64,000 bases of DNA from Terriglobia bacterium (GCA_965215235.1 OZ244053.1:5063879-5127878), one strand, 5' to 3'. Numbered from the stretch's first letter, positions 5,983 to 47,667 are shown. Numbers and translations are program-made. The notes: generated by a model from the sequence alone, not told the origin.

Positions 5983-6148
5983 GGGAGACCTGCGGGATCG
6001 GGGCCTGCCGAATGCCAAGCTTTGTATTGTCCTATAGAATAGTTTCTTCAGCCAGGATAAGTTCGCCCGCTGAACGGGCGCGGCTGAGATTTCAGGTCTC
6101 TGGCGGCTGAAGAACGCAGGGCTCGCACGCCATAGAGTCATCCCGGAG

Positions 6149-8317
6149 ATGAAAACGGATCCAGGATTGTCCCGGTCGCTTGTTGATGCCCCCATGGTAG
6201 AAACCAAGTCCAACCATCTCGGTAAGGTCTGCTGCAGTTTGCGCGGTCAGGTGGTCGCCGGCAGTTACCAGACCTGCTGCCTGACTTACACGGCGGGGTT
6301 CTCCGGAATTGACGACACCGGCTCGATCAAAGTGGTGATGCGCTACGCTACCGATTGTGGCGTCCCACAGTTCGATCAGCCCGAAGCCCCTAACTACACT
6401 ACGGCCCGGGCCTCCAACGGAGCTCGTCTGCAGTTGCGCTACGACCCCAAAGACAACGTCCGGCCCTGGGGCAAGACTCTTTACCTGAAAATCGTGCAGG
6501 GATTCCTGCGCCGCGGCGATCAGATCCACTTGACTCTGGGGGATCGCAGTTGCGGCTCCGACGGGTGGCGAATTCAGACCTTCCTGGAAAGAACCTTTGA
6601 GTTGAGGGTGCTGGTGGATCGCTTTGCTACCTACACCTATGAAGCCTTGCCAGACTCTCCCACTTTCCGCATTGTGGCAGGCGGGCCAGTTCGCCTGGTA
6701 GCCGTCGCTCCGACTTTGGTTCTCGTAGGCGAGCCAATCGTCGTCCGAAGCAAGCTGGAGGATCGTTGGGGCAATCCGGTTGGGCTTCCCCGGAAAAAAA
6801 GATTCCCGGCTTTTAGAGAACCCGGACAGTACACCCTATCTGTGAAAGATGCCAAAACCGGGTTGGTCGGACAGACCAATCCCATTCTGGTCAGTCGAGA
6901 GGAACGATATGGAAGATTTTGGGGGGACCTCCATGGCCAGAGTGAGGAAACGATCGGCACCAATACCATCCGGGACTACTTTCGCTTCGCTCGCGACTTT
7001 GGCTTTTTAGACATCTGCGCCCACCAAGGCAATGACTTTCAGATCAGCGATGTCTTCTGGAAAAAGATCCAGGCAACGACCAGGAAATTCTATGAACCTG
7101 GACGCCTGGTGACCTTTCCCGGTTGGGAATGGAGCGGCAATACCGGTCTGGGCGGCGATCGCAATGTGTGGTTCAGGGAAGAAGGAGGCCCGATCGGTCG
7201 CAGTTCCCACGCCCTCCTTTCGCCTCGCGAGGCCCGCGGGTCCTGTTGCGAAACCGTTGAGGAGCTGTTTGACCGTTTGCGGGACTGTGGGCGTGAGGTG
7301 ATGATGATTCCCCACGTCGGCGGTCGCTATGCCGACTTGAGCCGCCATGATCCGAACCTGGAATGGGCGGTGGAGGTCCATTCGGCCTGGGGGACCTTTG
7401 AATGGATGTTAGCGGAGGCCTTTGCCCGGGGTCATCGCCTGGCGATTGTTGCCAATTCCGACGGACACAAGGGTCGCCCCGGAGCCAGCTATCCGGGAGG
7501 CAGCACCTTCGGCAGCTACGGAGGACTCACCTGTGTGTTGGCCAAGCGTCTGACCCGAAAGAGTGTCTGGGAAGCCTTTCGGGCTAGGCGGGTCTACGCG
7601 ACAACCGGTGCTCGCGTCTACTTGGATTTTGAAACCGAGGACGGGATTCCAATGGGCGGACTCCTCACCACTCGGTCTCGGTCGGGTCCCGGCTTCCGCA
7701 TCAGGGTCTGTGGCACTGCTCCCATTGAGCGAGTGGAGGTTCGCAACGGAATGCGTGTCGTGAAGTGTTTCCGCACATACACCTCGGCAGATCTTTCCCA
7801 TCGACTCAAACTTCTCTGGGAGGGGGCGGAGGTGCGGGGGAGAGGTCGCCAGGTCAACTGGAACGGGTCTCTGACTGTGGGGGACAATCGGATTCGCCGG
7901 GTGACGGCTCTCAATTTTCACAATCCCGATCTGCCTTTCCGACAGGCCGGCCCGACTCAGCTCCGCTGGGAGTCAAAAACCACCGGCGGGGCGGCAGGCC
8001 TGATCCTGGAGATGGCTCGGGCAGCGGCCGGCCGGATCAGGGTGGAAACCAACCAGGCAAGTTTTCACTTACCCCTCCAGGCAGTGAGACTCAAAGGAAA
8101 GATCTATCGTCTGGGCGGTGTGGACAAGCGTATTTCTCTGTACCGCCTGCCACCAGCCGGCGGACCGACCCACTGTGAATTCACCTTCAAGCTTCCGGCA
8201 AGATACTGCTTCGAAGGCGACAATCCGATCTACGTGAAAGTCGTTCAGGAAGACGGACACATGGCTTGGTCGAGTCCGATCTATGTGGTGAGGCCCGAGG
8301 GCGCCTGGAGTGAGTGA
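6149..8317 (+). CDS. DUF3604 / PHP-like metallohydrolase domain protein
   Basis: WGDLHGQSEETIG, GWEWSG, HVGG, EVHSAWG, NSDGHKGRPG, RRVYATTG motifs. Confidence 0.8.
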   Translation: MKTDPGLSRSLVDAPMVETKSNHLGKVCCSLRGQVVAGSYQTCCLTYTAGFSGIDDTGSIKVVMRYATDCGVPQFDQPEAPNYTTARASNGARLQLRYDPKDNVRPWGKTLYLKIVQGFLRRGDQIHLTLGDRSCGSDGWRIQTFLERTFELRVLVDRFATYTYEALPDSPTFRIVAGGPVRLVAVAPTLVLVGEPIVVRSKLEDRWGNPVGLPRKKRFPAFREPGQYTLSVKDAKTGLVGQTNPILVSREERYGRFWGDLHGQSEETIGTNTIRDYFRFARDFGFLDICAHQGNDFQISDVFWKKIQATTRKFYEPGRLVTFPGWEWSGNTGLGGDRNVWFREEGGPIGRSSHALLSPREARGSCCETVEELFDRLRDCGREVMMIPHVGGRYADLSRHDPNLEWAVEVHSAWGTFEWMLAEAFARGHRLAIVANSDGHKGRPGASYPGGSTFGSYGGLTCVLAKRLTRKSVWEAFRARRVYATTGARVYLDFETEDGIPMGGLLTTRSRSGPGFRIRVCGTAPIERVEVRNGMRVVKCFRTYTSADLSHRLKLLWEGAEVRGRGRQVNWNGSLTVGDNRIRRVTALNFHNPDLPFRQAGPTQLRWESKTTGGAAGLILEMARAAAGRIRVETNQASFHLPLQAVRLKGKIYRLGGVDKRISLYRLPPAGGPTHCEFTFKLPARYCFEGDNPIYVKVVQEDGHMAWSSPIYVVRPEGAWSE

Positions 8318-33970: not shown

Positions 33971-34069
33971 GGCTTGAACTCCAAGGCTCGAGGGGCTGTC
34001 ATTCCACAGCCCCGCCCGCCCGCTGTGCCGGAACCTTTGTGGATCTGCCCGACAAAACGTGTTTACCCC

Positions 34070-34608
34070 TCAGGCTCCGTTCTCCTTATACAGGAAACGG
34101 AATCTCCAGGCCAAAAGAATGCAGCCAATGGGAAGGGCAATGAGAGCCCCGTAACCCAGCACTCCCTGGTAGTTTCCGATGGCTTTGATCGCGGTGAACA
34201 CGAAGGCGCTGCCTGCCACGAGGTTGACAACTTGGAGGACAGCGGGAGCATGGAGTGGACGGGGAAGAAACCTTCGGTCGGCCCAGAGGTTGGCAGAACA
34301 GTAGAAACTGGCCACGAAACAGGTGAAAATCCCTGCCGGAGTGACGAGGTCCAAAAGGTCGAAACCCGGCTCGACCACGCCGGCTTGCTGCAGCCAGCGA
34401 ACGCTGATTGGTGGCCGAAGATCGCGCCCCCCGGGGAGGGGAAAATCATTTCCCCGCTGTCCACCGCCACCGAGGCCACAATGGCGCCGGGACCGAAGAA
34501 ACGAAACCATGCCGCTAGGTTGCGAGACAACAGAGCCGCTGGAGGATCTGCTACACCTGCGCCGACAGCGGTTGAATCTCCGGTTTCTTGAGGCGACATG
34601 CTCGACAT
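34070..34608 (-). pseudogene. Nramp-like transporter with a large internal deletion
   Basis: N-terminal FFGPGAIVASVAVDSGEMIF joined out of frame near 34400 to C-terminal DRRFLPRPL...; most TM helices missing. Confidence 0.65.
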
Positions 34609-34693
34609 GCTTTTGAGGAAGCCCCCCGGCTGGTCGAGGGTGGATATATCGAACCGGAGTTCGCTGCTCGCTTGCTCCGCCGCCGGCCATCCG

Positions 34694-37600
34694 TCACCCA
34701 TTGATGGACGAAGCTGTGTGTGGCGCCACCACGTCGACAAACTCCGCAATCACCCGTACCCGTTCTTCTTCCGCGCCAGTGAGGATGATGGGTTTGAAGT
34801 CGGGATTGAGGGGCTTCAGGATGATAGTCGTGTGTCGCCAGGAGTCGCCGTCCGTTGTTTTCTTGCTCTCGTAACGCTTGATGGTGTAGCGCTCCCCGGT
34901 CTCGGGATCGAGCGCGTCGCGGAGTTGAACGAGCACGCTCTTGCCCTGCCGGGCGCCGGTGACGGGCGCCGCGAACAAACAGTAGGCGCCGTCCGGGATC
35001 GCGGGTTCCATCGAGCGGCCCACGACCTGGGCGACGAACATGCCCGGGCGCAGGCGATGCTTTGTTTCCACTTCTATCCATTCCCACTCGTTATCCTCGA
35101 CGTGTTGCGCTTCGCTGAAGGCGCCGGCGGCTGCTGTGAGGGGGACGAGCGGCACGCAGGTAACGTATTTCTCCTCAAGGTTCGGCTGAACCACCCTGAA
35201 CGGCGCGCCCCCGGAGTGCTCGCCTTCCGGTTCGACTCGCATTTCCGGCGCACGGCGGATTTTCTGGTAGGGCCCTGCCCTGCCATCCACTCCGTGACGA
35301 CGTTCTGAAATGGCGCGTCGTTCATGAAGCGGACGAAGATCTCTTCGTTCTGATCCATGCGCTCGACGAAGAGGTTTTCGAGCAGGTTCTTGAATATCAG
35401 CTCGAACTTGCCCCCCGGATTCACCGCCGCCGCCTGCCGCAGGTCGTCATCGGCAACTGCTGCTTCGACGATCTGGTCGAAGAAAAGCTGATCGGCCTGA
35501 TTGAAGTCGGCGCCGAAGCGTTCGTTCACGATGTCGATGAGCTGGGAGAGCGGCATGGATTCCGACCGCACCAGGCCGCTCCCGACCTCGGTAGGGCCGT
35601 CGAGCGGGCGCGGCTCGCCGTATTGCAGCGGGATCGATCCCTCACTGATCTTCTGCAACCGGTAATACTCGAGACGTACGTCGTCGTCGAAATCGTAGGC
35701 GGGACCGCGACGGCGCCTGGGCAGCTTGGCGGCGAGATGCCGGAGGAACACGTACAGTTTCTCCAGATCTGAGTCCTGGTAGGGGATCACCTGGCTCAGG
35801 AATCCATAGAGATTCCGAAACGCCTGCGTCTTGCCCCGCCAGAGCTCGGCCTCTTCTTCGTCCTCGTCGAGCCATGCCCCGAAACGAGAAACCGCCGGGT
35901 CCAGAGCCACGTTCATCGCTTGGTGGTCCGCGGCGCTCTGACGCTGCTTGGGCTTGAAGTACACCTTGCAAAATCGCTTGACCTCTTCGTCCAGGTAGAT
36001 TCCGGCGGCATTGAGCTCGCTCTGGACCTGGTACATGCGCGCCGGGTCGACCTCCTCGCCCATTTCAGCGCCCTCGTAGTAGACCTTGAAAGCCTCATGG
36101 ATCTCGTCACGATCGTTCACGAAGTCGAGGACGAAGGTGTCCTCCTTGAGAGGATGGATGCGGTTCAGTCTCGACAGCGTCTGCACTGCCTGGATTCCGG
36201 CGAGCCGCTTGTTCACGTACAGCGTATGCAGCAAGGGCTGATCGAATCCCGTCTGGTACTTCTCCGCCACGAGCAGCACCTGGTATTCCTGTGTCGCGAA
36301 CTTCTCGGGCAACTCCTTCTCCCGAATCCCGTCGTTCATATCTTCCTCGGTATAGGAAACGTCGGGCAGTTTGTCGTCCTGCACAGTGCCCGAGAAGGCC
36401 ACCAGCGACTTGATCGGATAGCCCTTCTCGCGGATGTACTTGTCGAAGCTTTGCTTGTAGCGGACCGCCTCCAGGCGTGAACCGGTCACCACCATCGCCT
36501 TGGCGCGTCCGCCGATCCTGTGCCGGGTGAAGGCATTGAAGTGCTCCACCATCACCTCGGTCTTCTGCGTGATGTTGTGTGGATGAAACTTGAGGAAGCG
36601 GGCGAGCGCTTGGGCGGCTTTCTTGCGTTCGACGTTGGGATCGTCGCGGGATGCTTTCAGGAGCTTGAAGTAGGCGGCGTAGGTGGTGTAGTGCTTGAGC
36701 ACGTCGAGGATGAACCGCTCCTCAATGGCTTGGCGCATGGTGTAGCGATGCGCGGGTTGTCCGTTGCGTCCAAATACGGCGAACGTCTTGTGTTTGGGCG
36801 TCGCTGTGAAGGCGAAGAAGCTCAGGTTCGCCTGACGCCCCCGCTTGGCCATGCTGCGAAAGAGCGCTTCCATATCCTCATGGCCTTCCTCCTTCGCCTG
36901 CTTCCTGGCCCTCTCCCACAATGCCTCGCCGCCGAGCACCCCCTTCAACTCGGTGGCCGTCTCGCCGCCCTGAGAACTGTGCGCCTCGTCGATGATGACG
37001 GCGCAACGGCGGGTAGGAAGGATGCCGGTTTCATCCGTCCCGCGCTCTTCGGCCATCTTGAGCAGGTGGCGGGAGACGAAGGGGAACTTCTGCAAGGTGG
37101 TGGTGATGATCGGGACCGCGTTTTCCAGCGCCTGGGCCAGTTGCCTCGAACTTGCGTCGATCTTTTGCACCACGCCGCGTTTGTGCTCGAACTGGTAGAT
37201 GGTGTCCTGAAGCTGCTGGTCCAGCACGATCCGGTCGGTCACCACGATCACGCTGTCGAAGACGCGCTCATTCGAGGCGTCGTGCAATGACGCCAGTCGG
37301 TGGGCGAGCCAGCCGATGGTGTTGCTCTTGCCGCTGCCGGCCGAGTGCTCGATCAGATGGTTGTGTCCCACGCCGTTGCTCCGGGCGGCATCGACCAACA
37401 GGCGCACCGCCTGGAGTTGGTGATAACGGGGGAAGATCATCGTCTCGACCTTCACTTTACGCCTCCGGTCGTCGTGCTTCTCCTCGCTCTGCAAGTGGAC
37501 GAAGCGGGCCAGCAGGTCGAGCAGGCTGTCGCGTTGCAGGACCTCCTCCCACAGGTAGGAAGTACGGTAGCTGCGCCCTTTGGGATCGGGCGGGTTGCCA

Positions 37601-38259
37601 GAGCCGCCGTCGCAGCCCTTGTCGAAGGGAAGAAAATGCGTCGCAGCGCCGGCGAGCCGGGTGGTCATGAGCACGGACTCGGTATCCACCGCAAAGTGGA
37701 CGAGCGCGCGCCGCTTGAACTCGAAGATCGGCTCGCGCGGGTCGCGGTCCTGCCGGTACTGCCTGCGTGCATCCTCGAGGGTCTGGCCGGTGAGCGGATT
37801 CTTCAACTCCAGGGTTGAGACGGGTATCCCGTTCAGACTCAGCGCGACGTCGACGGAGTGCTCCGAGCGCGGCGAAAAGCGGAGTTGGCGGGTGAGGCCG
37901 ACGCGGTTGGCGGCGTAGCATGCCTCAAGATCGGGGTTCAACTCGTGGGCCGCCTTGAAAAAGGCAATGCGCAGCGTGCGGCCATAGCACTTGAAGCCGT
38001 GGCGCAGCGTCGCCAGAGCGCCGTGCGTGTCCATCCACTTGCAGAGGTCGGCGAGCACCTGCCCGCCGATCCGCTCGCCGAGAAGCGCCTCCAGCTTGCT
38101 CCACTCGTTCGGCTGGGTCTCGCGGATGAACTCAAGCGCGGTCTCGGGAAAGAGGGCGCGTTCGCGGTCGAAGGCGTCTCTCGGGATGGAGATGTAGCCG
38201 TTCCGTAGAAGGTGCGTTTCGATGACGGTCTCGAAGGCCGCTTCGCCGGTGGGTTTCAT
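34694..38259 (-). CDS. hsdR: Type I restriction subunit R with C-terminal S24 (LexA-like) peptidase domain; apparent frameshift at 35270-35275
   Basis: VD...NGIP...LELK nuclease, [34 protein letters not shown]. After EWMAGQ the other frame reads YQKIRR...AAAGAF...VVGRSMEP...YTIKRY. Confidence 0.9.
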
Positions 38260-38750
38260 GGCTCTATCTCCAAGACAAACCTAGCCCGCTCACGGCGCAG
38301 CATCTCGAAAGGCGTCATGCAGGTAATCTCCAAGGCGATGCAAGCATTGGGGATTTTGATCTTCCTGGGTGAATTCGAAGGCTTCTCGTGCGTCACCACC
38401 GTGTGGGCATGGGCCAGCGCGTGGGCGACCAAATAGTAATCCGCCACCGATAGGAACGTGTTGATGGCAGCGGGGTCGTACTGCTGCCTGGTGGACCAAG
38501 CGCTCACTGCGGCGAGCGCGTTCAACACTTCCTCATCGGGCCTTAAAAAGAATCCGGGGCCACGGTCCGCTGCCCAATTTGCAAGCTGGTCTCCTCCGCC
38601 TTGGATCTCGCCTTCCACTTTCTCGATGCTGTAAACGTTTCCCGCGTCATTGGACTCGATTAACCACTCCCAGAACGCAGGGCAAAAGTCGAACCCGTAG
38701 TGCAGATTGCTGGCGCTCATGAACACGTTGGCGTCGAGGAGGTAGGCCAT
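38256..38750 (-). CDS. DUF4411 PIN-like protein
   Basis: YLLDANVF...YGFDFCPAFWEWL...ADYYLVAHA...VVTHE...KIPNAC. Confidence 0.88.
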   Translation of the reverse strand: MAYLLDANVFMSASNLHYGFDFCPAFWEWLIESNDAGNVYSIEKVEGEIQGGGDQLANWAADRGPGFFLRPDEEVLNALAAVSAWSTRQQYDPAAINTFLSVADYYLVAHALAHAHTVVTHEKPSNSPRKIKIPNACIALEITCMTPFEMLRRERARFVLEIEP

Positions 38751-39895
38751 CACACGTCGAGTCCCAGGCTATCCCCGAGCTTGCGGAAGGTCGCCATCTT
38801 CTTGAAGCCGAGCAACCGGAACGCCTCCGTGAAGGACGACCGTCCCTCCAGCGTGCTCACCACCATGGCGCGGGCGAAGCGCTTGCTGACCCGGGCGCCG
38901 AGAGTGAGGTAGAAGTCGCCGCCGCTCCCGGCGGACAGTGCTCTCAAACGAGCAACTTCCTCATCGTAGTCGGCCCGGTACTCATCGGCGGTGAGCGTGC
39001 CGACGTCGCGAAGCCGGCGCAGCACGACCAGTGTGCTCACCTTGAAGCGTCGCGCCAAGCGGTCCAACTCGGCGCGGAGCTCGGCTTGAGGCTCATGTAC
39101 GGCGCGCAGCGTCGCCATCGGCACCAGAAACTCCGCCGCCACTTGGTTGCACCAGCGCTCGACATCATGGTCGGGAAGCGTTCGCACCTGGCTGTCGGAA
39201 AGCGCCGATTGGCCCAGCCAGATATGAACTAACTCGTGCGCCAGCGTGAACATCTGCGCCGCCTTGGTGTCTGCGCCATTGACGAACACCAGCGGCGCCA
39301 AATCGTCAACCAACGCGAAGCCGCGGAATTCCTCGGGGTTCAGCTTGCGCCGGTTGTTGCTCCCTGCGATGCTGCTCACCATCACGAGTACCCCAGCGGC
39401 ATTCGCTTGCGAGATGAAACGGCGTAGCGCATCGGTCCAGGTGGGCATTTGCCGGCGTTCTTCCAGGTCGAAGCCAAGTGCCCCGCGGATTCCCGCAGCC
39501 ACCGCTTCGACGTCGTTGTTCTGCTGCACCGAACCCACGAACTCAAGCCGTCGCTCCCCCTCCATCAGGGCGAAGTCGCGGTACCACGCTTGCCGTTGCT
39601 GACACAGGTAAAGCGTGTCGAGCAGATCAGGGCTCGGGCGCTCGACAGTCTGACCGGCGATGGTTCGGAAATCCGGAATGGGCACCTGCTCTTCCGGCGG
39701 CTCGGGCAAAAACAGGTAGCCGACGGGCGTATGCGTGGCCTTGGCGAAGGCTTCAAGCTGCTTGAGGGTCGGCTGCTTCTCCCCCCGCTCCCAGGCGGGA
39801 AGCTGGCGGATACGCTTCGCAAGGGCAGCGGGCTCGATTCGTGCACGCTCGCATGCCCAGCGCAGCATTCTGGGTTCGATCTCAACGCGATTCAT
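38750..39895 (-). CDS. XRE-HTH + ImmA/IrrE (M78) metallopeptidase
   Basis: LRWACER...WERGEKQPTLKQL HTH; FTLAHELVH (HExxH); E..CN..AAEFL. Confidence 0.92.
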   Translation of the reverse strand: MNRVEIEPRMLRWACERARIEPAALAKRIRQLPAWERGEKQPTLKQLEAFAKATHTPVGYLFLPEPPEEQVPIPDFRTIAGQTVERPSPDLLDTLYLCQQRQAWYRDFALMEGERRLEFVGSVQQNNDVEAVAAGIRGALGFDLEERRQMPTWTDALRRFISQANAAGVLVMVSSIAGSNNRRKLNPEEFRGFALVDDLAPLVFVNGADTKAAQMFTLAHELVHIWLGQSALSDSQVRTLPDHDVERWCNQVAAEFLVPMATLRAVHEPQAELRAELDRLARRFKVSTLVVLRRLRDVGTLTADEYRADYDEEVARLRALSAGSGGDFYLTLGARVSKRFARAMVVSTLEGRSSFTEAFRLLGFKKMATFRKLGDSLGLDV

Positions 39896-40022
39896 TTCTC
39901 CGTACCCGCAAGCTCAGCTTTGTTTTCCAGCACGTCGCTTCGGTTAACGTCCATTAGCCGCCGGTCCTGCCGGTTATCGCTCCGCTCAGGTCTTTTTCTT
40001 CTACGCGATCAACTCTAACGGT

Positions 40023-40484
40023 TTAGGTTGGTTCGACATGGATGAATTCGAACCATACATCTTTCAAATGACGAAAGTCCGTGTCCGTCGACACCAATGT
40101 GGCTCCGCTTGCATGGGCCGTGGCCGCGATCCAAAGGTCATTCTGAGTCATCGAGAGAGCCGGTTTTGGTGGGGGGGAGCCGTCGGGAGAAGGGACAGAC
40201 TTGCCATGGGTCCAGGCATCGATGAGGGCGTACGCGTTCAGAATCGACTTGCGGTTTATGTCGAGCCTCGGAAGCTGGTGCAGGATTCGATTGAGCTTGG
40301 CGCGTGTGTTGTCACCCCAACCTCTTTTTTCAGCAAGAGCGAGAATCTCTCCATGACAAATTACGGAGGTATAGGCGGCTACTTCCCCACTGTCAAGATT
40401 TAGCTGCTCGACAGCTTGGCGAGCCCAGGACGCTCTTCGGGTGAGACCGAGCAACAGGCCAGTATCGAGAAGAAAGACCTTCAT
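40023..40484 (-). CDS. vapC: VapC-family PIN toxin
   Basis: LLDTG, SVICHGE, NDLWIAATA, LVSTDTDF.HL. Confidence 0.88.
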   Translation of the reverse strand: MKVFLLDTGLLLGLTRRASWARQAVEQLNLDSGEVAAYTSVICHGEILALAEKRGWGDNTRAKLNRILHQLPRLDINRKSILNAYALIDAWTHGKSVPSPDGSPPPKPALSMTQNDLWIAATAHASGATLVSTDTDFRHLKDVWFEFIHVEPT

Positions 40485-40495
40485 CAGCGAACCGA

Positions 40496-41434
40496 TCAGT
40501 CAAGCTGGTCCAAGAGTTCTTCTATTGGCTCATCTCCGGGCCAAGCGCCCCACAGTTCCATGAAATTGGCGGATCGAGCATGCTTTTTCCAAGCTGTTAA
40601 ACCTCGCGACTCTGGAACCTCCACCGATGGCATCTCGTCCCAAACGTCATCTCCATGACGACGGCTGCCAATCCGTCGGGCTTCGATAAATCGCGGCTGG
40701 CCGTTGACCTTGAAATGCACCATGCCTTCGACAGTAGCTTGCTTCCCCCACAAAGGACGCAAAGTCTCCACGTTCAACGCCATGGTATCCAGTCGGCCCA
40801 GAAGTTGCGAACCCTGACTTACCAGGAGGCGAAAGCGGCCGCCGCCATGTTTGATCTCGTCGAGCCGGCCGCTCACGATGAAAGCTCTTGGAACCAGAAT
40901 GTCGTTCAACCGCTGGCTGACGTGCGCGCAGACGCTGTCGTCCAATGTAAACCCCTCATGCGCGCCGTCCCGAGGGAGCAAGTCATAGCGCACGCCGGCG
41001 ACCCCGGCGGCTTTCCTGAACTTGAGTATCGCTTCGAGAACTGAACCGTCGAAGTAGTCGCCTGCGGGATCTCTGGTCTGAACCTCTTTGACCGCCCGGG
41101 CGGCAAGATCAAGCACCGTGTCATCCGGGCTTGGCCCCTCGCGCCCGAAATCCCGTTGGGCGAATTCTGCGTAGGGGGTCTCGCCAAGCCGAGGGGCCTC
41201 TATGTCGAGAACCGTCGAGCCGGATTCCAACCCGGTTATCGTGAAATCGACGGTTGCATCGAGCCACCTGGGTTTTTTCCCTTTCCCGCTGCCTTCACCG
41301 GTGGCAAGCAAGCGGGTGGTCCGCTCCGCCGTCTGGATGAGGGCGTCCAGAACACGCCGGAGACTCGCCGCCCTGATCTGCCCTTCCTTTTCCTGGAGGC
41401 CGTTGAGGCAAAACTGATAGCGTTGTGTGTTCAT
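40496..41434 (-). CDS. Hypothetical protein, probable large antitoxin partner of the downstream PIN
   Basis: 312 aa; beta-rich C-terminal half (VSGRLDEI...RFRL...WGKQATVEG) and acidic tail LWGAWPGDEPIEELLDQLD; ends 11 bp before the vapC start. Confidence 0.7.
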   Translation of the reverse strand: MNTQRYQFCLNGLQEKEGQIRAASLRRVLDALIQTAERTTRLLATGEGSGKGKKPRWLDATVDFTITGLESGSTVLDIEAPRLGETPYAEFAQRDFGREGPSPDDTVLDLAARAVKEVQTRDPAGDYFDGSVLEAILKFRKAAGVAGVRYDLLPRDGAHEGFTLDDSVCAHVSQRLNDILVPRAFIVSGRLDEIKHGGGRFRLLVSQGSQLLGRLDTMALNVETLRPLWGKQATVEGMVHFKVNGQPRFIEARRIGSRRHGDDVWDEMPSVEVPESRGLTAWKKHARSANFMELWGAWPGDEPIEELLDQLD

Positions 41435-41528
41435 GGCCTTCCCCACTTTTTTTGGGTTGCCGGTCGACACGGATCCGTTGCTTCTCAGGTGATCTGTCCG
41501 GTCACGAAATCCGCTTTGGGGTATCCTG

Positions 41529-41882
41529 TCACTCTCGCACCCGGATTTGCGATTCTTCCACGATCCAAAGCCACCTGTCGAGCGGCGCGCCGGACAGCGA
41601 CCGGAGAAACCGTGCCCCGATGTTCAGAACATGGTCCCGCGCCTGGCTTCCAAGTCGAAACACGACAATCCCCGAATAAACGCCGGGGGGATAGGTTCGG
41701 ATATCCGAGAAGTCCGTATCTAACGTGACCATCGCACGGCCTTCGCGAACGCACGCCAACGCGAGAGCGGAATCCGTCGCTCCGCCGAGATCCTGGTCGA
41801 GAACCGTCACAGCGTCATGTCCGGCCTGATGGAACAGATTCGCCAGTTCAGACGGAAGATTCTCGTCCAGCTTGAATCGCAT
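41529..41882 (-). CDS. DUF5615 PIN-like toxin
   Basis: MRFKLDENLP, GHDAVTV, GATD, VTLDTDF. Confidence 0.88.
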   Translation of the reverse strand: MRFKLDENLPSELANLFHQAGHDAVTVLDQDLGGATDSALALACVREGRAMVTLDTDFSDIRTYPPGVYSGIVVFRLGSQARDHVLNIGARFLRSLSGAPLDRWLWIVEESQIRVRE

Positions 41883-41887
41883 GCCCA

Positions 41888-42116
41888 CTACTCCGACAAC
41901 GGCGCCACCCGTTCTTTCGCCAGTTCCGCGGCGTAGCACACGGCGGCCCTGGATGGCTTCACGGGTGATCGACGGGTAGCTTCTCAGGATTTCCTCTGAA
42001 TCCAGACCGGTCGCCAGGTTGTCGAGGACCGTGGTCACCAGCACTCGGGTACCTGTGATGCAGGCTTTTCCGTGGCAGATTTCGGGATCGACCGTAATAT
42101 GCTCTTGCCAATTCAT
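41888..42116 (-). CDS. DUF433 antitoxin, apparent +1 frameshift at 41945-41949
   Basis: ITVDPEICHGKACITGTRVLV..VLDNLA.G...EEILRSYP.IT; removing one base gives IQAAVCYAAELAKERVAPLSE-stop. Confidence 0.88.
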
Positions 42117-42249
42117 GAGTTCTCACCTCTTATTCTTACGACTATGGCGCAGGCGAAACACCTGCCGATCCGGACGACGACTCGGGGCGTCATGGCGACA
42201 TCCCCGCCAGCTTCCACTCCAGCCACCAGATGGCGACTTGATCATACGG

Positions 42250-42421
42250 GAACCCATTGGCGTGCTTGACGACCGCAGAAAGGCAGACGGCCAACGCTTC
42301 GAGTTACGCTGGTCCTACCGCCCCCGTTGGTGCCGATGCTGAGACTGAAGTCGGGCTGGAAGCAAAACTCGGCCGCCGTGATAACTCGGACGTTCGCGAA
42401 CTTGAGACGAGTTACCTTCAT
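42250..42421 (-). pseudogene. Remnant of an ABC/SMC-type ATPase N-terminus
   Basis: ATG overlaps the hsdS stop (ATGA): MKVTRLKFANVRVITAAEFCFQPDFSLSIGTNGGGRTSV, frameshift, then LEALAVCLSAVV; degenerate Walker A. Confidence 0.7.
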
Positions 42422-43686
42422 GCGTTCCTCCCGACATCGATTTGTCCGGTCACCGCCGCGGCGATGAGAGCAGCGCGACGTTCTTTGAGGAGGGCGATGG
42501 TACTCTCTGCTGCGGCCCGCAGATGATCCAGACTCCGACCTTCGATCTCCAAGAATGCGGCGATCTCTTCCTGCTCTGTAAGTGGCGGCAATGCGATTGG
42601 AAGGTAGCCGTAGCGATTCGGGTTAAGGTTGGCCTGCCCAATCGCAGGCAGCGCCTCGGCGCGTCCCCAAGCCAGCGAGAATGCCGAATTCAGTAGCCAT
42701 TTCAAGAATACAGGTAGAGCCGCTGGGCCACATCGAAATCGAACCAGATAGGAGGCAAACGATACGGGATAGTCAGGAGAACCCCGGAACAGTGCGACCT
42801 TTCCGATCTGATCAAGACTATTAGTGCGGTTAAAGACGAGATCGCCAATTTGGAGAAGAAGAGCATCGTCAACCTCGTCCACAAATCCAACCCTAGAATA
42901 GTCGAGTTTCCCTTCCTGAATGTCACCCATACGGAGCACAGCGATGGTACCCGATGCGTCAACGGAGGTAGAAATTCCGTAATCGACATTAGCTAGCACA
43001 CGCTTGAGATGACACTGAATCCAATGCGCCGGGATCTTGTCCACACCGCGAATGCCGGAGTCGCGGAGAGGGGTTCCGGGGTCGAGGCCGCGGGTGACGG
43101 CGCGGGTGATGATCGCCCGGCGCTTCTCGGCCAGCAGCCCTAGCAGCCGCTCTTTCGCCGCCACCAGCGCATCCAGCCGCGCCGTTTCCCTGTTAAGGTA
43201 GTCGGCAATGGCTCGTTGCCAGGGCAGCGGATGTACCTGAACCGGAATGTCTGCGAGCTCCGAGGCATTGATCGCCGGGTAGCTGACGCCAACAGAACGC
43301 TTCTCCACTTCTGCCAGGAAAGTCGGCTCCCGCAGTGCAAACCTGCAGTAATTGGCATCAAATTTGTCGCGAATTGGGCGGATCACTGCAAAACCGGTTG
43401 AAACGATCAGGTTGTCGGGAGGGTCATGAATCTGCGTGATTGCTTGAAGATACGTCCTCACCGTTGAAATGATTACGTCACCGTCTCGGACCCGTCGGCG
43501 TGCGCGACTTGGTGAGTCCTCAAAGCGGTATGAAGCGATCTCGTCCATACGCCCAGAAGAGTCGACGTTACCGATGTCGACGTACTGAATTTCGAAGTCT
43601 GCATTGGTATCCTCACTAAGAGCTTCATCGTTGATCGTGGATAGATACTTGAGCGGGAGTTGTGAAGCCCTTGCTGTCGCGCTCAC
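42418..43686 (-). CDS. hsdS: Type I R-M specificity subunit
   Basis: Two TRDs; conserved QRAIADYL..ETARLD...EKRRAIITRAVTRGLDP and PPLTEQEEIA...ERRAALIAAAVTGQI. Confidence 0.95.
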   Translation of the reverse strand: MSATARASQLPLKYLSTINDEALSEDTNADFEIQYVDIGNVDSSGRMDEIASYRFEDSPSRARRRVRDGDVIISTVRTYLQAITQIHDPPDNLIVSTGFAVIRPIRDKFDANYCRFALREPTFLAEVEKRSVGVSYPAINASELADIPVQVHPLPWQRAIADYLNRETARLDALVAAKERLLGLLAEKRRAIITRAVTRGLDPGTPLRDSGIRGVDKIPAHWIQCHLKRVLANVDYGISTSVDASGTIAVLRMGDIQEGKLDYSRVGFVDEVDDALLLQIGDLVFNRTNSLDQIGKVALFRGSPDYPVSFASYLVRFRCGPAALPVFLKWLLNSAFSLAWGRAEALPAIGQANLNPNRYGYLPIALPPLTEQEEIAAFLEIEGRSLDHLRAAAESTIALLKERRAALIAAAVTGQIDVGRNA

Positions 43687-45671
43687 GTCGTCACCTCCCG
43701 CAGCAACCGCACGATTTCTGCCTCCGCCTTCTTCAGGTCCGCGTCGATCTCCTCCAGCGGGCGCGGCGGGGTGTAGTGGTAGAAGTGGCGGTTGAAGTTG
43801 ATCTCGTAGCCCACCTTGTCCCTGGCGCGGTCCATCCAGGCGTCGGGGACGTGGGGGCGCACCTCTCGCTCGAAGTAGGCGTCGATGTCCTGGGCGAGTG
43901 GGACGTTCTCGAAGTCGCGCAACTCGGGGTCGGGTTCGTAACCCTTCTCACGGCCATCCCTCTCAACCGGCTCGGCCTCCGGGTCCTTGACGGTGAACAC
44001 GTGACGGAAGAGCTTTTGTTCCGTCTTCTTCCAGCGCGACTTGCGTTCGTGCAGCAGGTCGGCGATGCGCTGCCATACGGCGTTCCAGTCGCCCATCGGC
44101 TTGCGGCCGAGCGCCTGGTCGATGGCCTGAATGTCGTCGAGGAGCCAGGGGCAGGCGTCCAGAAAACGGGCCTTGTCGTCGATTGTCATCCGGTAGCGCA
44201 GACGCAGGGGCCGCTCGACGGTGACGCGGGTGTAGCCGAAGTCGGTGTTCCTGAAGCGCTTCGAGCGCTCGCCGTCCTCGAACCGCCCGTAGAGCCGCAC
44301 GATGTCGTCGATCTGGCTACCGCTCAGGTGACGGCGCTTGTCGCCGAGGCTGCGCCGGCTCTCCGCGCTGCCGCCGGGGGTCCAGAGGCTGCGCGCGTCG
44401 AGAAGCTGGATTCTGCCCTTGCGCCGTTGCTCCTTGCGGTTGGTGACGATCCAGACATAGGTGCCGATGCCGGTGTTGTAGAACATTTGCTCGGGCAGGG
44501 CGATGATGGCTTCGAGTCGGTCGTTCTCGATGATCCAGCGGCGGATGTTGCTCTCCCCCGAGCCGGCGCCGCCGGTGAACAGCGGCGAGCCGGAGAAGAC
44601 GATGGCGAGCCGCGAGCCGTGCTGGCGCTCCGTCTCGCGCACCGGCTCGAACTTGTGGATCATGTGCTGCAGAAACAGCAGCGAGCCGTCGTTCACCCGG
44701 GGCAGTCCCGCCCCGAAGCGGCCGGCGAGGCCCTGCTTTTCGTGCTGGCGCCGGATCTCGTTTTTTTGCTTCTTCCAGTCGACGCCGAAGGGCGGGTTGG
44801 TGAGGAAGTAATCGAAGGTTCTGCCCTCGAACCGATCCTCGATGAGGCTGTCGCCGAAGCGCACGTTGTCGCCGGCGCCGTTGTGATCCACCTGCTTCAT
44901 GAGCATATCGGAGGCGGCGGTGGCATAGGCGCGCTTGTTGTAGTCCTGCCCGTAGACGAAGAGCCGCGCTTCGGCGTGGTGGTCGCGAAGGTAGTTCTGG
45001 GCCTCGGCCAACATGCCGCCGGTGCCGCAGGCCGGGTCGAGGAGCGTGCGCACCGTGCCGGGCGTTGCGAGCAATTCGTCGTCGTTGATGAACAGGACGT
45101 TCACCATGAGCCGGATGACCTCGCGCGGGGTAAAGTGGTCGCCGGCGGTTTCGTTGGCGAGTTCGTTGAAGCGGCGGATGAGGTTCTCGAAGATGAGCCC
45201 CATCTGCTCGTTGGGCACCGTGTCGGGGTGCAGGTCCACGTCGGCGAACCTGGAGACGACCAGGTAGAGGATGTTCGCCTCGCTCATCTTCTCGATCTCG
45301 GTCTCGAACTCGAGGTACTCGAAGATGCGGCGCACGTTGGCCGAGAAGCCCTGAATGTAGCTCACCAGATGCGGGGCAACATTGTCGGGGTCGCCCTTGA
45401 GCTTCTTGAAGTCGAGTGGCGAATGGTTATGGAAGCGCTGGCCGGCGGTCTGGTCGAGCACGCGGTCGAGGGCCTTGCCCTCGAGCTTGCCCCGCTTGCG
45501 CCTCTCATACTCCGCCAGGACCTTGGCCTTGGTGGGGGCGAGCACGCAGTCGAAGCGGCGCAGAACCGTCATGGGCAGCATGACGCGCTCGTATTGCGGC
45601 GGGCGGTAAGGGCCGCGCAGCAGGTCGGCGATCTGCCAGATCAGGTTGGCGAAATAGCTGTGGTCGGACAT
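43683..45671 (-). CDS. hsdM: Type I R-M m6A methyltransferase subunit
   Basis: IWQIADLLRG, GDHFTPREVI, DPACGTGGM, NPPF, FYNTGIGTY. Confidence 0.97.
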   Translation of the reverse strand: MSDHSYFANLIWQIADLLRGPYRPPQYERVMLPMTVLRRFDCVLAPTKAKVLAEYERRKRGKLEGKALDRVLDQTAGQRFHNHSPLDFKKLKGDPDNVAPHLVSYIQGFSANVRRIFEYLEFETEIEKMSEANILYLVVSRFADVDLHPDTVPNEQMGLIFENLIRRFNELANETAGDHFTPREVIRLMVNVLFINDDELLATPGTVRTLLDPACGTGGMLAEAQNYLRDHHAEARLFVYGQDYNKRAYATAASDMLMKQVDHNGAGDNVRFGDSLIEDRFEGRTFDYFLTNPPFGVDWKKQKNEIRRQHEKQGLAGRFGAGLPRVNDGSLLFLQHMIHKFEPVRETERQHGSRLAIVFSGSPLFTGGAGSGESNIRRWIIENDRLEAIIALPEQMFYNTGIGTYVWIVTNRKEQRRKGRIQLLDARSLWTPGGSAESRRSLGDKRRHLSGSQIDDIVRLYGRFEDGERSKRFRNTDFGYTRVTVERPLRLRYRMTIDDKARFLDACPWLLDDIQAIDQALGRKPMGDWNAVWQRIADLLHERKSRWKKTEQKLFRHVFTVKDPEAEPVERDGREKGYEPDPELRDFENVPLAQDIDAYFEREVRPHVPDAWMDRARDKVGYEINFNRHFYHYTPPRPLEEIDADLKKAEAEIVRLLREVTT

Positions 45672-45678
45672 CCTCGTC

Positions 45679-45842
45679 CTCCGCGCAACTCGGCGCTTTC
45701 CTGACGCGAACCCGATGGGTCTCGGCTACTGAACCTCGGAGCTGCAAATGGCGAATGGCCCACGGTTTGCCCGACAGGTTCAAGTGAAACATGCTTCATC
45801 CTAGTGGAATCAGCCTGTTCGCACCAGTGGGAAACAGGGTGA
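45679..45842 (-). repeat. Leader repeat copy A (immediately upstream of hsdM)
   Basis: Near-identical to 47428-47586; on the minus strand carries a TAGGAT -10-like box and ends in GGAG. Confidence 0.9.
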
Positions 45843-46002
45843 AGCATGACGAATTTTCGGGAAGCTCGACACGAATAGTGGATGGGGTTCTGTTCCTCCT
45901 GTAAAAACCTCATTGCAAACGTATCTAAACGGTTGAAAGTGGTGCGACCTACTACCAATGTCAACTGGCGTATCCTCCGACGCATCCGATCGGTTTTGTC
46001 AT

Positions 46003-46383
46003 TCAACGTTCGCTTTCCAGTGGAACAACTTTAGCCGGCCCCGTTTGGCCGAGACCGTGCCCATCAGGATATGGACCTGGGCGCCTTCCGAGTACGATTC
46101 GGGCAGGATATGGGCCAAGAAGCCCTCGTTCGGTTTGATTTCAAGGGGCAACTCGACGCGGAGCCAGGAAGAGGATCAATTCGTCATTGGCTACCGAGGC
46201 TCGGTAGGCGATGAGTCTGAAATGACGCCCCAGGGGTTTCTTGAGTAAGACAGTTCGAAGAAACTGAAAATCTGTCAGATTCTGTGTTTTCTCAATCGAT
46301 TTCTGTAGTCCTGCAACTAACGAGACCTGATTGTAATTTTGCGCATCATGCTCGCAAGCGTCAGTTACGTACACATAGATGGC
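46003..46383 (-). pseudogene. Two fused gene remnants
   Basis: N-terminal fragment MAIYVYVTDAC...FRLIAYR...LILFL switches near 46165 to an out-of-frame C-terminal fragment WLRVELPLEIKPNEGF...FHWKANVE-stop. Confidence 0.45.
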
Positions 46384-46537
46384 CACGGCGTGTCTCCTTT
46401 CAGTGCTGCTCTACTGAAATCATATTTTCCATCCGACAACACGAACGTAATGGAGGCAGAACCAGCCCTTCTTCCAGCCGGGCGTATCCGACGCCGGCGT
46501 TCGGGCGTGGTTTGGATGGCATGCGTGCTGGTATCGG

Positions 46538-46882
46538 CTAAATCCCTTCCCCAAGGATTGCTTCCAGTTGACCAATCAATGGCGGCAGTTCATTTGCTAT
46601 CGTGTCCCACAATCTGTTTAGATCAACGATGTCGTAGCCATGAACCAGCCGGTTGCGCATTCCAATCATCTGGGGCCAGGGAATTTCCGGGTGACGCTGC
46701 TGTGTTGTTTCAGAGACGCGGTTGGCTGCCTCGCCAACAATTTCCACCAGCCGCGTCAGTGCCAATTGCATGACCCGGTCGCTTTTCACTTCCTCCCGGC
46801 TTGCCTCACCCAATAAATCGACGGCTTCCCTTGCGTGAATAAGCATATCGGCGAGGCTTACCCGGTCGTCATGTCTGCTCAT
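46538..46882 (-). CDS. hepT: HEPN (DUF86) ribonuclease toxin
   Basis: EIVGEAA, PEIPW..MIGMRNRLVHGY (RX4H motif followed by GY). Confidence 0.92.
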   Translation of the reverse strand: MSRHDDRVSLADMLIHAREAVDLLGEASREEVKSDRVMQLALTRLVEIVGEAANRVSETTQQRHPEIPWPQMIGMRNRLVHGYDIVDLNRLWDTIANELPPLIGQLEAILGEGI

Positions 46883-47183
46883 ACAGGGCCTCCGCCGAAT
46901 TGAGTATCTCGTCCCGGAGCAAGCGGTTGGGGCTACTCTCAACACCCTTGAAGGTGTGCAGATCCGCCTTCCGCCCCAGGATTTCGCCCAACCCAATCTC
47001 CAATCCCGCCAGACCAATGTAGCCAATGCGGACGCTCGGTTCAAACTCCACCAAAACGTCCACGTCGCTCTCGGGCGCGAAATCGTCCCGCAGCACCGAT
47101 CCAAACAGCGCCATGCGCCGGATATGGTTGCGTCGACAAAATTCGGCAATCGCGTCTCTCGGAATCTCGATTTTCAGACTCAT
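46869..47183 (-). CDS. mntA: Minimal nucleotidyltransferase antitoxin
   Basis: LFGSVLRDDF.PESDVDVLVEF (GSX10DXD). Confidence 0.92.
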   Translation of the reverse strand: MSLKIEIPRDAIAEFCRRNHIRRMALFGSVLRDDFAPESDVDVLVEFEPSVRIGYIGLAGLEIGLGEILGRKADLHTFKGVESSPNRLLRDEILNSAEALYEQT

Positions 47184-47345
47184 GCCTCCACCCCCGTGAA
47201 CATCCGGGCCTTGAACACGGCCTCCAGGCCCCTGGCGTTTGGGATGAACGAATCGCCGTTGACGAAGACCTCGTCCGCGCCCTCCGCCAGTTTTCGTTCG
47301 GCCACGAACTTCTTGTCCTGATCCAGGTTCGCCTTTTGCCGGTTG
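47180..47345 (-). pseudogene. C-terminal remnant, probably of a type III-like DNA methyltransferase
   Basis: KANLDQDKKFVAERKLAEGADEVFVNGDSFIPNARGLEAVFKARMF; recalled resemblance to Mod C-termini, unverified; stop overlaps the mntA start. Confidence 0.45.
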
Positions 47346-47427
47346 GCTTGGAGACTGAGCCCGACCATGCCGCCGCGATACCATCCTGTCGATAGAAGTC
47401 GGCGGCAGGTATTTTACTATCCATGCA

Positions 47428-47586
47428 CTCCGCGCAACTCGGCGCTTTCCTGACGCGAACCCGATGGGCCGCGGCTGCTGAACCTCGGAGCGGCAAATGG
47501 CGAATGGCTCACGGCTGACAGGTTCGGGTGAAACATGCTTCATCCTAGTGGAATCAGCCTGTTCGCACCAGCGGGAAACAAGGTGA
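47428..47586 (-). repeat. Leader repeat copy B
   Basis: Near-identical to 45679-45842; followed by ATG 47424. Confidence 0.9.
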
Positions 47587-47667
47587 GCTTCGCCGCCAAA
47601 CATTCATTTTTCACACCTTCGGGTTCAGGGTCCTTTCGGCTCTGCGCGGGTTTGACCGGACTTTGGA

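Follow-up and report, generated by a model that had tools for sequence, protein, structure and literature searches.

A type I restriction-modification operon with a cargo slot between hsdS and hsdR, occupied in a Terriglobia bacterium by three PIN-type cassettes and a Septu remnant

Organisation of the locus

We describe a type I restriction-modification (R-M) operon in a 64,000-nucleotide (nt) stretch of DNA from a Terriglobia bacterium, here called the window (G000:C1:5063879-5127878; the source genome is a single contig of 5.24 Mb). Between the genes for the specificity subunit (hsdS) and the restriction subunit (hsdR) the operon holds a remnant of a Septu defence gene and three two-gene cassettes, each with a PIN-type putative ribonuclease (RNase). 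Reading the sequence directly gives ten reading frames within 34694-45671, all on the minus strand, and so bears out the gene row proposed in an initial annotation of this DNA. Proteins were named with Pfam and with PADLOC v2, candidate models included (E <= 0.01 for PADLOC), and NCBIfam was also scanned. The features are as follows, with lengths in amino acids (aa) and with open reading frames abbreviated as ORFs.

43683..45671, minus strand: hsdM, type I methyltransferase, 662 aa (Pfam N6_Mtase 5.3e-52, HsdM_N 3.2e-23; PADLOC MTase_I 1.6e-259, residues 2-661)
42418..43686, minus strand: hsdS, specificity subunit, 422 aa (Pfam Methylase_S 2e-9; PADLOC Specificity_I 2.8e-87)
42242..42421, minus strand: ptuA stub, a 59-codon ORF with 43 homologous residues (PADLOC PtuA models 6e-8 to 5e-6, residues 1-43)
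41529..42116, minus strand: DUF433 antitoxin-like and DUF5615 (PIN-like, Mut7-C group) toxin-like pair in one 195-aa ORF (Pfam DUF433 1.2e-19, DUF5615 2.5e-19, PIN_10 4.9e-6)
40496..41434, minus strand: 312-aa protein of no named family (324-codon ORF 40496-41470; homologues start at the ATG at 41434)
40023..40484, minus strand: PIN-domain (VapC-like) RNase, 153 aa (Pfam PIN PF01850 1e-9)
38750..39895, minus strand: helix-turn-helix (HTH) and M78 (ImmA/IrrE) metallopeptidase, 381 aa, Rosmer-type antitoxin-like (Pfam Peptidase_M78 1.9e-18; PADLOC RmrA 6.3e-20)
38256..38753, minus strand: DUF4411 PIN-like nuclease, 165 aa (Pfam DUF4411, PF14367, 1.9e-54)
35290..38259, minus strand: hsdR, helicase-nuclease, about 990 residues in frame, the ORF continuing out of frame to 35074 (Pfam SWI2_SNF2, HSDR_N, T1R_D3-like, ResIII)
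34694..35290, minus strand: LexA-type S24 domain, normally the C-terminal tail of HsdR (Pfam Peptidase_S24 9.9e-10)

HsdM, HsdS and HsdR are encoded together, as expected of a type I R-M system, by both Pfam and PADLOC. HsdR carries GSGKS at residue 308, DEAH at 424 and the nuclease-type E-x-K motif L-E-L-K at 150, and its TIGR00348 score of 190 lies under the cut-off of 284.55. The helicase-nuclease part of hsdR is intact in the window, and its S24 tail is out of frame there and in sequencing run X3. As read from the sequence, the hsdM/hsdS junction is GTGA, the GTG start of hsdS overlapping the hsdM stop, and hsdS overlaps the ptuA stub in ATGA. The IrrE gene is joined to DUF4411 by TGATG and DUF4411 to hsdR by an ATGA overlap, so that the coupling of these three genes noted in the initial annotation can be seen in the junctions themselves. 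Three spacers of about 125, 90 and 127 nt set the cassettes apart.

Comparison with related loci at the DNA level places the borders of the pieces. The ptuA homology stops at about 42251-42257, the DUF433/DUF5615 cassette occupies 42124-41524, and the cassette of the 312-aa protein and its PIN partner occupies 41437-40028; IrrE, DUF4411, hsdR and S24 form a single continuous homology block, 39895-34726, common to L084, L097, L144 and others. We read the window from these borders as a mosaic assembled out of a cargo pool common to the hsd family. For each cassette the DNA homology to relatives begins at most 26 nt before the first start codon, which implies that no conserved promoter region of its own travels with any of them. 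The initial annotation had held that promoters belonging to the modules would speak against a single unit, and on this point its expectation stands. In a scan of 34000-46500, promoter-like sites numbered 2 (2.4 +/- 1.6 expected) and terminator-like sites 2 (11.8 +/- 2.7 expected), which is uninformative for this organism.

The hsdS-hsdR slot and the Septu remnant

A scan of one genome per species gave 260 HsdR relatives, and the best 80 were used for a census. Slot counts refer to the 68 of these 80 loci that have both hsdS and hsdR, the 12 loci without hsdS on the fetched stretch being left out. Across the best 80 relatives HsdR is 76-84% identical, and their hosts are found in Acidobacteriota, Gemmatimonadota, several proteobacterial classes, Planctomycetota, Verrucomicrobiota, Chloroflexi, Spirochaetia and others, which indicates that the operon has been widely transferred. 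The hsdM of the window is 69-86% identical to that of related loci.

The gap between hsdS and hsdR ranges from 689 to 8511 nt in the 68 loci and is zero in none. To describe its content, the gap ORFs were clustered and PADLOC and Pfam were applied to representatives. PtuA and PtuB, the two Septu proteins, are present in 27 loci and Septu remnants in 10 further ones (37/68 together); the slot PtuA has 417 aa (PADLOC 5.3e-116) and PtuB 216 aa (1.4e-68). IrrE with DUF4411 is found in 14 of the 68 loci (IrrE alone in 1), DUF433/DUF5615 in 5, and the 312-aa protein with its PIN partner in 2, one further locus holding fragments of this pair. Gabija, PD-Lambda-5 and type II R-M are among the remaining contents, which include GajA, an OLD-like protein, a C5 methylase together with a nuclease, AlbA_2 proteins, one Abi_C protein and DUF6575-like proteins of 430-446 aa. 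Several loci combine two or three systems, such as Septu with IrrE/DUF4411 in L098 and L119 or Septu with DUF433/DUF5615 in L109. In 44/66 loci no more than 20 nt separate the end of the final same-strand cargo ORF from the projected start of hsdR. All three modules of the window recur in this slot elsewhere, as one would expect if it is the accessory site that the initial annotation took it for. The hsdS-hsdR slot is a real cargo site of this hsd family, with Septu as its default cargo.

What had been annotated as an ATPase remnant after hsdS can now be identified as a 43-residue stub of the Septu gene ptuA. The 59-aa ORF matches N-terminal PtuA/GajA models only, over residues 1-43, and in a tblastn search the full-length PtuA of L115 likewise matches the window only with residues 1-43, at 42293-42421. 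PtuB had no tblastn match in the window, so the full-length PtuA and PtuB that make up Septu are not found there. Given that the stub consists of the first 43 PtuA residues, placed exactly where ptuA starts elsewhere, and that ptuB is missing, we take Septu to have been displaced. A similar arrangement is seen in L151 (8443-10004), a metagenome-assembled genome of another phylum, where hsdS, a ptuA stub and a DUF433/DUF5615 pair abutting hsdR correspond to the left half of the window's row, with a deletion of different extent.

Five loci from the same genus as the window (L004-L008, in G009, G004, G008, G011 and G003) encode an HsdR that is 48% identical, has 1218-1230 aa and ends in a different C-terminal domain of about 230 aa, which may resemble AlbA_2. 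In these loci hsdS abuts hsdR directly, without a cargo slot.

The three cassettes

The first cassette is a DUF433/DUF5615 pair of the COG4634/PIN_10 type. Both domains of this layout are present, joined into one ORF in the window by a frame change: the C-terminal helix of DUF433 sits in another frame (41888-41947), so that DUF433 reads into DUF5615, whose start lies at 41882. The stretch 42124-41524 has 70-79% DNA identity to L102, L109, L122 and L151, where the pair abuts hsdR.

The second cassette pairs the PIN RNase with the 312-aa protein, whose start is likely the ATG at 41434, judging from its homologues. The 312-aa protein has no Pfam, PADLOC or NCBIfam match, and the Atlas clusters to which it belongs contain no Pfam family. 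Its homologues number 406, all unnamed; some have an additional N-terminal DUF6575 region. Its structural model (predicted local distance difference test, pLDDT, 79.4; predicted template modelling score, pTM, 0.78) has an N-terminal alpha/beta part, a barrel resembling an oligonucleotide/oligosaccharide-binding (OB) fold around residues 183-257, and a disordered tail whose W-P-G-D-E motif has an invariant W and E. Foldseek matches of the model in the PDB are weak and all to OB folds (E 2e-3 to 5e-2, none at E <= 0.001), and these weak but consistent matches suggest, tentatively, that the protein has an OB fold. In BFVD the best match of the model is a DUF6575 protein (1.6e-9), followed by two unnamed phage proteins. 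One validated defence system of E. coli includes a DUF6575 protein, as far as the available text of that report goes (PMC9519451).

Proteins of 430-446 aa with a weak DUF6575 match (3e-7, 2.4e-5) lie in the slot directly upstream of hsdR in L003 (4256-5545, minus strand), L102, L110 and L114. L003 is the closest relative, in genome G002, and there the protein has no PIN gene after it. We considered whether the slot proteins of L114 and L003 form one family with the 312-aa protein, and BLASTP gave no significant similarity.

The PIN gene starts 11 nt after the 312-aa gene. Residues D7, E46, D116, D134 and D136 of the PIN protein are invariant in 7 homologues, and the four conserved acidic residues of a VapC-type toxin are present. 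The small VapB with a ribbon-helix-helix, AbrB or Phd-type DNA-binding domain that completes a VapBC pair is absent; its place is taken by the 312-aa protein. The two genes keep together elsewhere. In 9 metagenome contigs with the 312-aa gene, PIN is the next gene in 9/9. Five of these loci have enough flank to be informative; three place the pair between hsdS and hsdR of another hsd family (HsdR 38-40% identical), and the other two have no hsd gene nearby. The 312-aa gene is also found in 6 other genomes of the phylum, in 0/6 between hsdS and hsdR, and one of them has a methylase-like gene 2.4 kb off. A complex prediction for the 312-aa and PIN proteins scored 0.34 against 0.29 for the control, which we count neither for nor against binding. 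We infer that the 312-aa protein may be a sensor-antitoxin of the PIN RNase.

The PIN gene beside the 312-aa gene is split in two frames at four other places (L094 8713-9163; L165 2152-2602; L166 4874-5324; L181 9002-9446), with three of the four breaks near residue 113. The PIN toxin of this pair appears to have been inactivated repeatedly.

In the third cassette the HTH-IrrE protein has an H-E-x-x-H motif at residue 220 and matches 14 further RmrA models, as expected of the HTH and zinc-peptidase component RmrA of a RosmerTA system. The adjacent gene is not recognised as the toxin RmrT, as DUF4411 has no PADLOC match at E <= 0.01. Rosmer toxins are diverse, so the missing RmrT match leaves a Rosmer-like action of DUF4411 possible. 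In the sampled genomes of the phylum, DUF4411 with IrrE is present in 42 of 401. We examined 40 of the 48 other places (the weak or fragmentary cases in G294, G258 (twice), G166, G374, G316, the second place in G272 and G227 were left out) and found an IrrE-like gene directly upstream in 39 of the 40, the last one ending at a contig end. An hsd-like gene lies within 10 kb in 10/40 loci and in none of the other 30. Four of the 40 are inside an hsd operon: three are hsdS-IrrE-DUF4411-hsdR arrangements in the hsd family of the window, and one belongs to another family. The hsdM and hsdR of those three loci are 74-83% identical to those of the window, and their IrrE only 29-48%. The available text of one survey places DUF4411.1 downstream of fused DUF955-HTH genes and predicts three-component toxin-antitoxin (TA) systems (PMC5499597). 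Two further reports, in their accessible parts, describe Rosmer systems, with their ImmA-type antitoxins, as phage-defensive and PIN-like domains as partners of ImmA domains (PMC10440598, 10.1101/2022.05.11.491447).

The LexA-type tail of HsdR and the frame changes

The initial annotation wrote the last gene as hsdR with an S24 domain. The S24 domain does lie at the end of hsdR; in the window it is not in the hsdR frame. Both protease types to which that annotation drew attention, S24 and ImmA/IrrE, are present. Relative to hsdR the S24 ORF is in the -1 frame, with an overlap of 216 nt, and roughly the final 70 residues of the hsdR ORF appear to be out of frame. Among 79 complete relatives, 47 have S24 in frame with HsdR, 32 end in a short tail and 0 have it out of frame; in G002 an HsdR that is 79% identical is a single 1182-aa ORF with S24 at its end.

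The tail has the properties of a LexA-type domain, namely the Ser and Lys motifs, the Ala-Gly stretch and the LexA C-terminal fold. Across 48 sequences the conservation of an A-A-G stretch, of G-x-S-M-E-P and of K-R-Y is at least 90%. The model of the domain has a pLDDT of 80.3, and its top 33 PDB matches in Foldseek are all LexA, lambda cI or UmuD (E 4.7e-5 to 9.4e-3); a phmmer search of the tail against PDB sequences found nothing. Altogether 1904 proteins longer than the tail match S24 at E <= 0.001. HsdR proteins of about 1180 aa and Type ISP-like proteins of about 1300 aa (PF18135, PF02384, PF07669; examples P0132, P0136 and P0138) both carry this tail at 69-77% identity, which suggests that it travels between two kinds of ATP-dependent restriction enzymes. 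It is present in 11/14 IrrE/DUF4411 loci and in 13/27 intact Septu loci; as the loci are interrelated we draw no conclusion from this difference. A literature search for an HsdR-S24 fusion at the level of titles and abstracts found no paper, which does not prove that none has been published.

Both frame changes of the window lie at the heptamer CAGGGCC (coding strand), at 35271-35277 for hsdR/S24 and at 41945-41951 for DUF433. The heptamer has three copies in the 12.5 kb region, and the third, at 44729 in hsdM, has no frame change. We compared the window with Logan contigs of the 'organism A' runs X2, X3 and X5 (X1, with a share of 0.06, and X6, with short low-depth pieces, were not used). These contigs span the locus without substitutions. 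The X3 contigs equal the window exactly, while in X2 and X5 the contigs lack 2 nt over 34000-36142 and 1 nt over 39237-43807; the positions of the gaps within these stretches were not displayed. Losses of just this size would put both genes back in frame, and the frameshifts seem to be missing from two of the three runs. They are either errors of the consensus or changes that arose at a hypermutable site (or the product of a site-specific mutational process), and HsdR-S24 and DUF433 are probably intact in at least part of the population.

Insertion site and upstream genes

In the same-genus genomes G009 and G005 the flanking genes are arranged as P450, an ORF and, after 1 to 1.4 kb, a symporter, with no hsd genes between them. 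Relative to these genomes, then, the entire block of about 13 kb has been inserted. G011 has hsdM fragments, 73-84% identical to the window hsdM, between symporter and P450 (L202, G011:C1:4868000-4884000, about 6131-6685); either the island was formerly present there or the site has been used repeatedly. A tRNA scan of the window found none, so there is no tRNA-linked integration site.

Just upstream of hsdM lies a fourth RNase toxin-antitoxin pair, MntA/HepT (46538-47603, minus strand), which is not conserved beside hsdM in related loci, with one distant pair in L150.

46869-47603, minus strand: MntA-like nucleotidyltransferase (NTP_transf_2 3.7e-13, NCBIfam MntA 1.2e-6)
about 46538-46900, minus strand: HepT-like HEPN RNase (3.6e-25)

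The search for a conserved regulator upstream of hsdM gave no match in 89 related loci (L084-L172), either for an 81-aa ORF (46141-46386), a 121-aa ORF or the DNA of 45672-46540.

Interpretation

The reading we favour, and think probable from the sequence comparisons, is that of a mobile type I hsd operon with a cargo slot in which Septu was displaced by three self-standing PIN-type cassettes drawn from a family-wide pool. The displacement would have left the 43-residue ptuA stub and removed ptuB, and DUF433/DUF5615, the 312-aa/PIN pair and HTH-IrrE/DUF4411 would now stand head to tail in place of Septu, the last of them having come as one block with hsdR and its S24 tail. The cassettes would be transcribed together with the operon. 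Each could be self-sufficient, a labile or protease-linked partner restraining the RNase; if the partner were lost or cleaved under infection or stress, the RNase would be released, giving abortive defence and also stabilising the island. No cassette would need to sense the restriction complex. Since the cassettes are enriched in type I operons without being confined to them, and since each RNase has its own partner, they resemble autonomous embedded systems more than the PrrC pattern.

Several observations weigh against this reading. The modules are enriched in hsd operons far above chance, and the 312-aa/PIN pair is also embedded in a different hsd family, in three of the five informative metagenome loci. 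IrrE/DUF4411 is always the cassette beside hsdR, and 12/12 called cases end within 45 nt of hsdR. That it stands next to hsd genes of 74-83% identity despite an IrrE identity of 29-48% could point to a functional tie and not a mere landing site. The short upstream homology (at most 26 nt) may mean that the cassettes depend on transcription of the operon, which would suit an integrated unit equally well. In addition, two genes are frameshifted in the window as assembled.

It is unlikely that the cassettes serve addiction only, as selfish TA pairs that stabilise the mobile hsd island by post-segregational killing and give no phage protection. An insertion of about 13 kb, in a family that moves between phyla and with MntA/HepT as a fourth TA pair just upstream of hsdM, would suit such pairs, and the frameshifted PIN genes of L094, L165, L166 and L181 are usual for decaying TA pairs. 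Against this, the slot cargo elsewhere consists mostly of proven defence systems, and the published work, in its available parts, shows that Rosmer-type systems defend against phages (PMC10440598) and that a DUF6575 protein belongs to a validated E. coli defence system (PMC9519451). Defence and addiction are in any case not mutually exclusive.

The initial annotation had seen in the three PIN RNases back-ups that act when restriction is blocked. In its strict form this would make them guards like PrrC, latent under HsdMSR or monitoring it and firing once restriction is blocked by an anti-restriction protein of a phage. In PrrC an ABC ATPase is fused to a nuclease; the restriction complex masks the protein, and there is no antitoxin gene. 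No such fusion, without antitoxin and found nearly only in type I operons, is present in the window, and no PrrC model of PADLOC matched any protein of the row. Every RNase here has an adjacent antitoxin-like partner, so that masking by the restriction complex is unneeded. The position of the slot is that of PrrC in its host operon, the cargo is packed tightly against hsdR, and the 312-aa/PIN pair is embedded in two unrelated hsd families, all of which would suit guards, as would the statement in the accessible text of one study that PrrC is almost exclusively embedded in type I R-M (10.1101/2024.01.29.577857). Yet the same text reports only 0.7% of Septu systems as embedded in Hma, and the usual occupants of the slot are stand-alone systems such as Septu and Gabija. 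The hsd association that was claimed stands in so far as the modules recur in the slot and are enriched there; it is not exclusive, with DUF4411 embedded in 4/40 loci and 312-aa/PIN in 0/6 phylum genomes, and most copies of each module lie away from hsd genes. We consider a guard function quite unlikely and do not retain the back-up role.

That the slot is a graveyard of partly inactivated genes, with restriction possibly impaired, is very unlikely: the ptuA stub, the DUF433 and hsdR/S24 frameshifts of the assembled sequence and the 0/47 relatives with an S24 tail that have it out of frame would suit decay, but the X2 and X5 contigs (X3 matches the window) are shorter by exactly the frame-restoring amounts, both sites lie in CAGGGCC with its three copies in 12.5 kb, as for a consensus error or hypermutable site, and all other genes are full length with catalytic motifs.

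A separate proposal concerns the S24 tail. On RecA filaments LexA cleaves itself, after which the fragments are degraded, and in E. coli type I restriction is alleviated through degradation of HsdR. By analogy with these two processes a damage-triggered off-switch for restriction is a reasonable hypothesis. DNA damage would give RecA filaments and lead the S24 domain to cut itself at the A-A-G stretch; the cut would remove the tail and may expose a protease-recognition end on HsdR, and restriction would be off when unmodified host DNA appears. The RNase cassettes of the slot, one of them with a damage-linked IrrE protease, could take over once restriction is off. In full, the tail would be a built-in restriction-alleviation switch on HsdR and would form with the coupled RNase cassettes a two-state unit of restriction and abortive defence, which we hold to be a rather doubtful proposal.

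Comparison with known systems

The 312-aa, PIN, DUF4411 and DUF433/DUF5615 proteins matched no PADLOC v2 model, candidate models included, and each cassette can be set beside a known type. The DUF433-COG4634/PIN_10 (VapB45-type) pairs and VapBC have, like the window, PIN or PIN-like toxins with conserved acidic residues and an upstream partner a few nt away. VapBC differs in its small VapB, whereas the partner of the PF01850 PIN protein has 312 aa, is OB-like and has no match to a DNA-binding family. RosmerTA and the HTH-DUF955-PIN systems share the HTH and M78 protein upstream of the toxin, as far as the available text describes them (PMC5499597). In the window the toxin of this type is DUF4411, with no RmrT match, and the pair is translationally coupled to hsdR. 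PrrC and RloC also place an RNase gene inside a type I operon; here there are instead PIN domains, each with its own partner, and no PrrC model match. The S24 tail resembles LexA, UmuD and lambda cI in its fold, its Ser and Lys motifs and the A-A-G stretch ahead of the core, but it is fused to the HsdR C-terminus or to Type ISP-like enzymes and not to a DNA-binding repressor domain.

To call the locus an undescribed system, as the initial annotation did, is too strong, as embedded TA and defence genes have been published, going by the accessible text of three reports (PMC12255303, 10.1101/2024.01.29.577857, PMC5499597). A close case is the RRDM island of enteropathogenic Escherichia coli (EPEC), in which a type I R-M system carries DarTG2 between its hsdS and hsdR genes. 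This DarTG2 is active against phages and is repressed by the upstream RptR; the authors regard the hsdS-hsdR site as a likely recombination hotspot for defence systems (PMC12255303). Like the window, the part of the island described there has a TA system in this slot in the same orientation. The window differs in having three cassettes and a Septu stub where EPEC has one cassette, PIN-type RNases in place of a DNA ADP-ribosyltransferase, and no conserved small regulator gene upstream of hsdM (the 81-aa ORF is unmatched in 89 loci). Defence systems nested within Hma, BREX, DISARM or type I R-M were the basis of the discovery approach of Payne 2024 (10.1101/2024.01.29.577857). Known and candidate defence genes are nested co-oriented in those data (96.7%), as in the window, and Septu is frequent; in the available text their Septu case is Hma, while Septu here is the default occupant of the slot in a single type I family (37/68). 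Coupling of PIN-like genes to type I subunits was already noted in 2017 in the accessible part of Matelska (PMC5499597).

What is added here is the family-wide slot with Septu as its default, the replacement history kept in the ptuA stub, the 312-aa/PIN pair and the LexA-type tail, of which the OB-fold partner of PIN and the tail on HsdR look new. The stacking of three cassettes is by itself a curiosity and no new principle. The comparison turns a single odd locus into a family-level rule, in which one type I R-M lineage across phyla always has a cargo slot, and the contents of that slot (Septu, Gabija, PD-Lambda-5, Rosmer-like pairs and unnamed genes) are a ready list of defence candidates. 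Among them the 312-aa/PIN pair is a testable candidate, with about 400 unnamed homologues, no PADLOC match and, judging from the models, a structural kinship with DUF6575 proteins. The LexA-type tail, if the proposal made for it is true, would give a concrete hypothesis for the shutdown of restriction that follows DNA damage in organisms outside E. coli.

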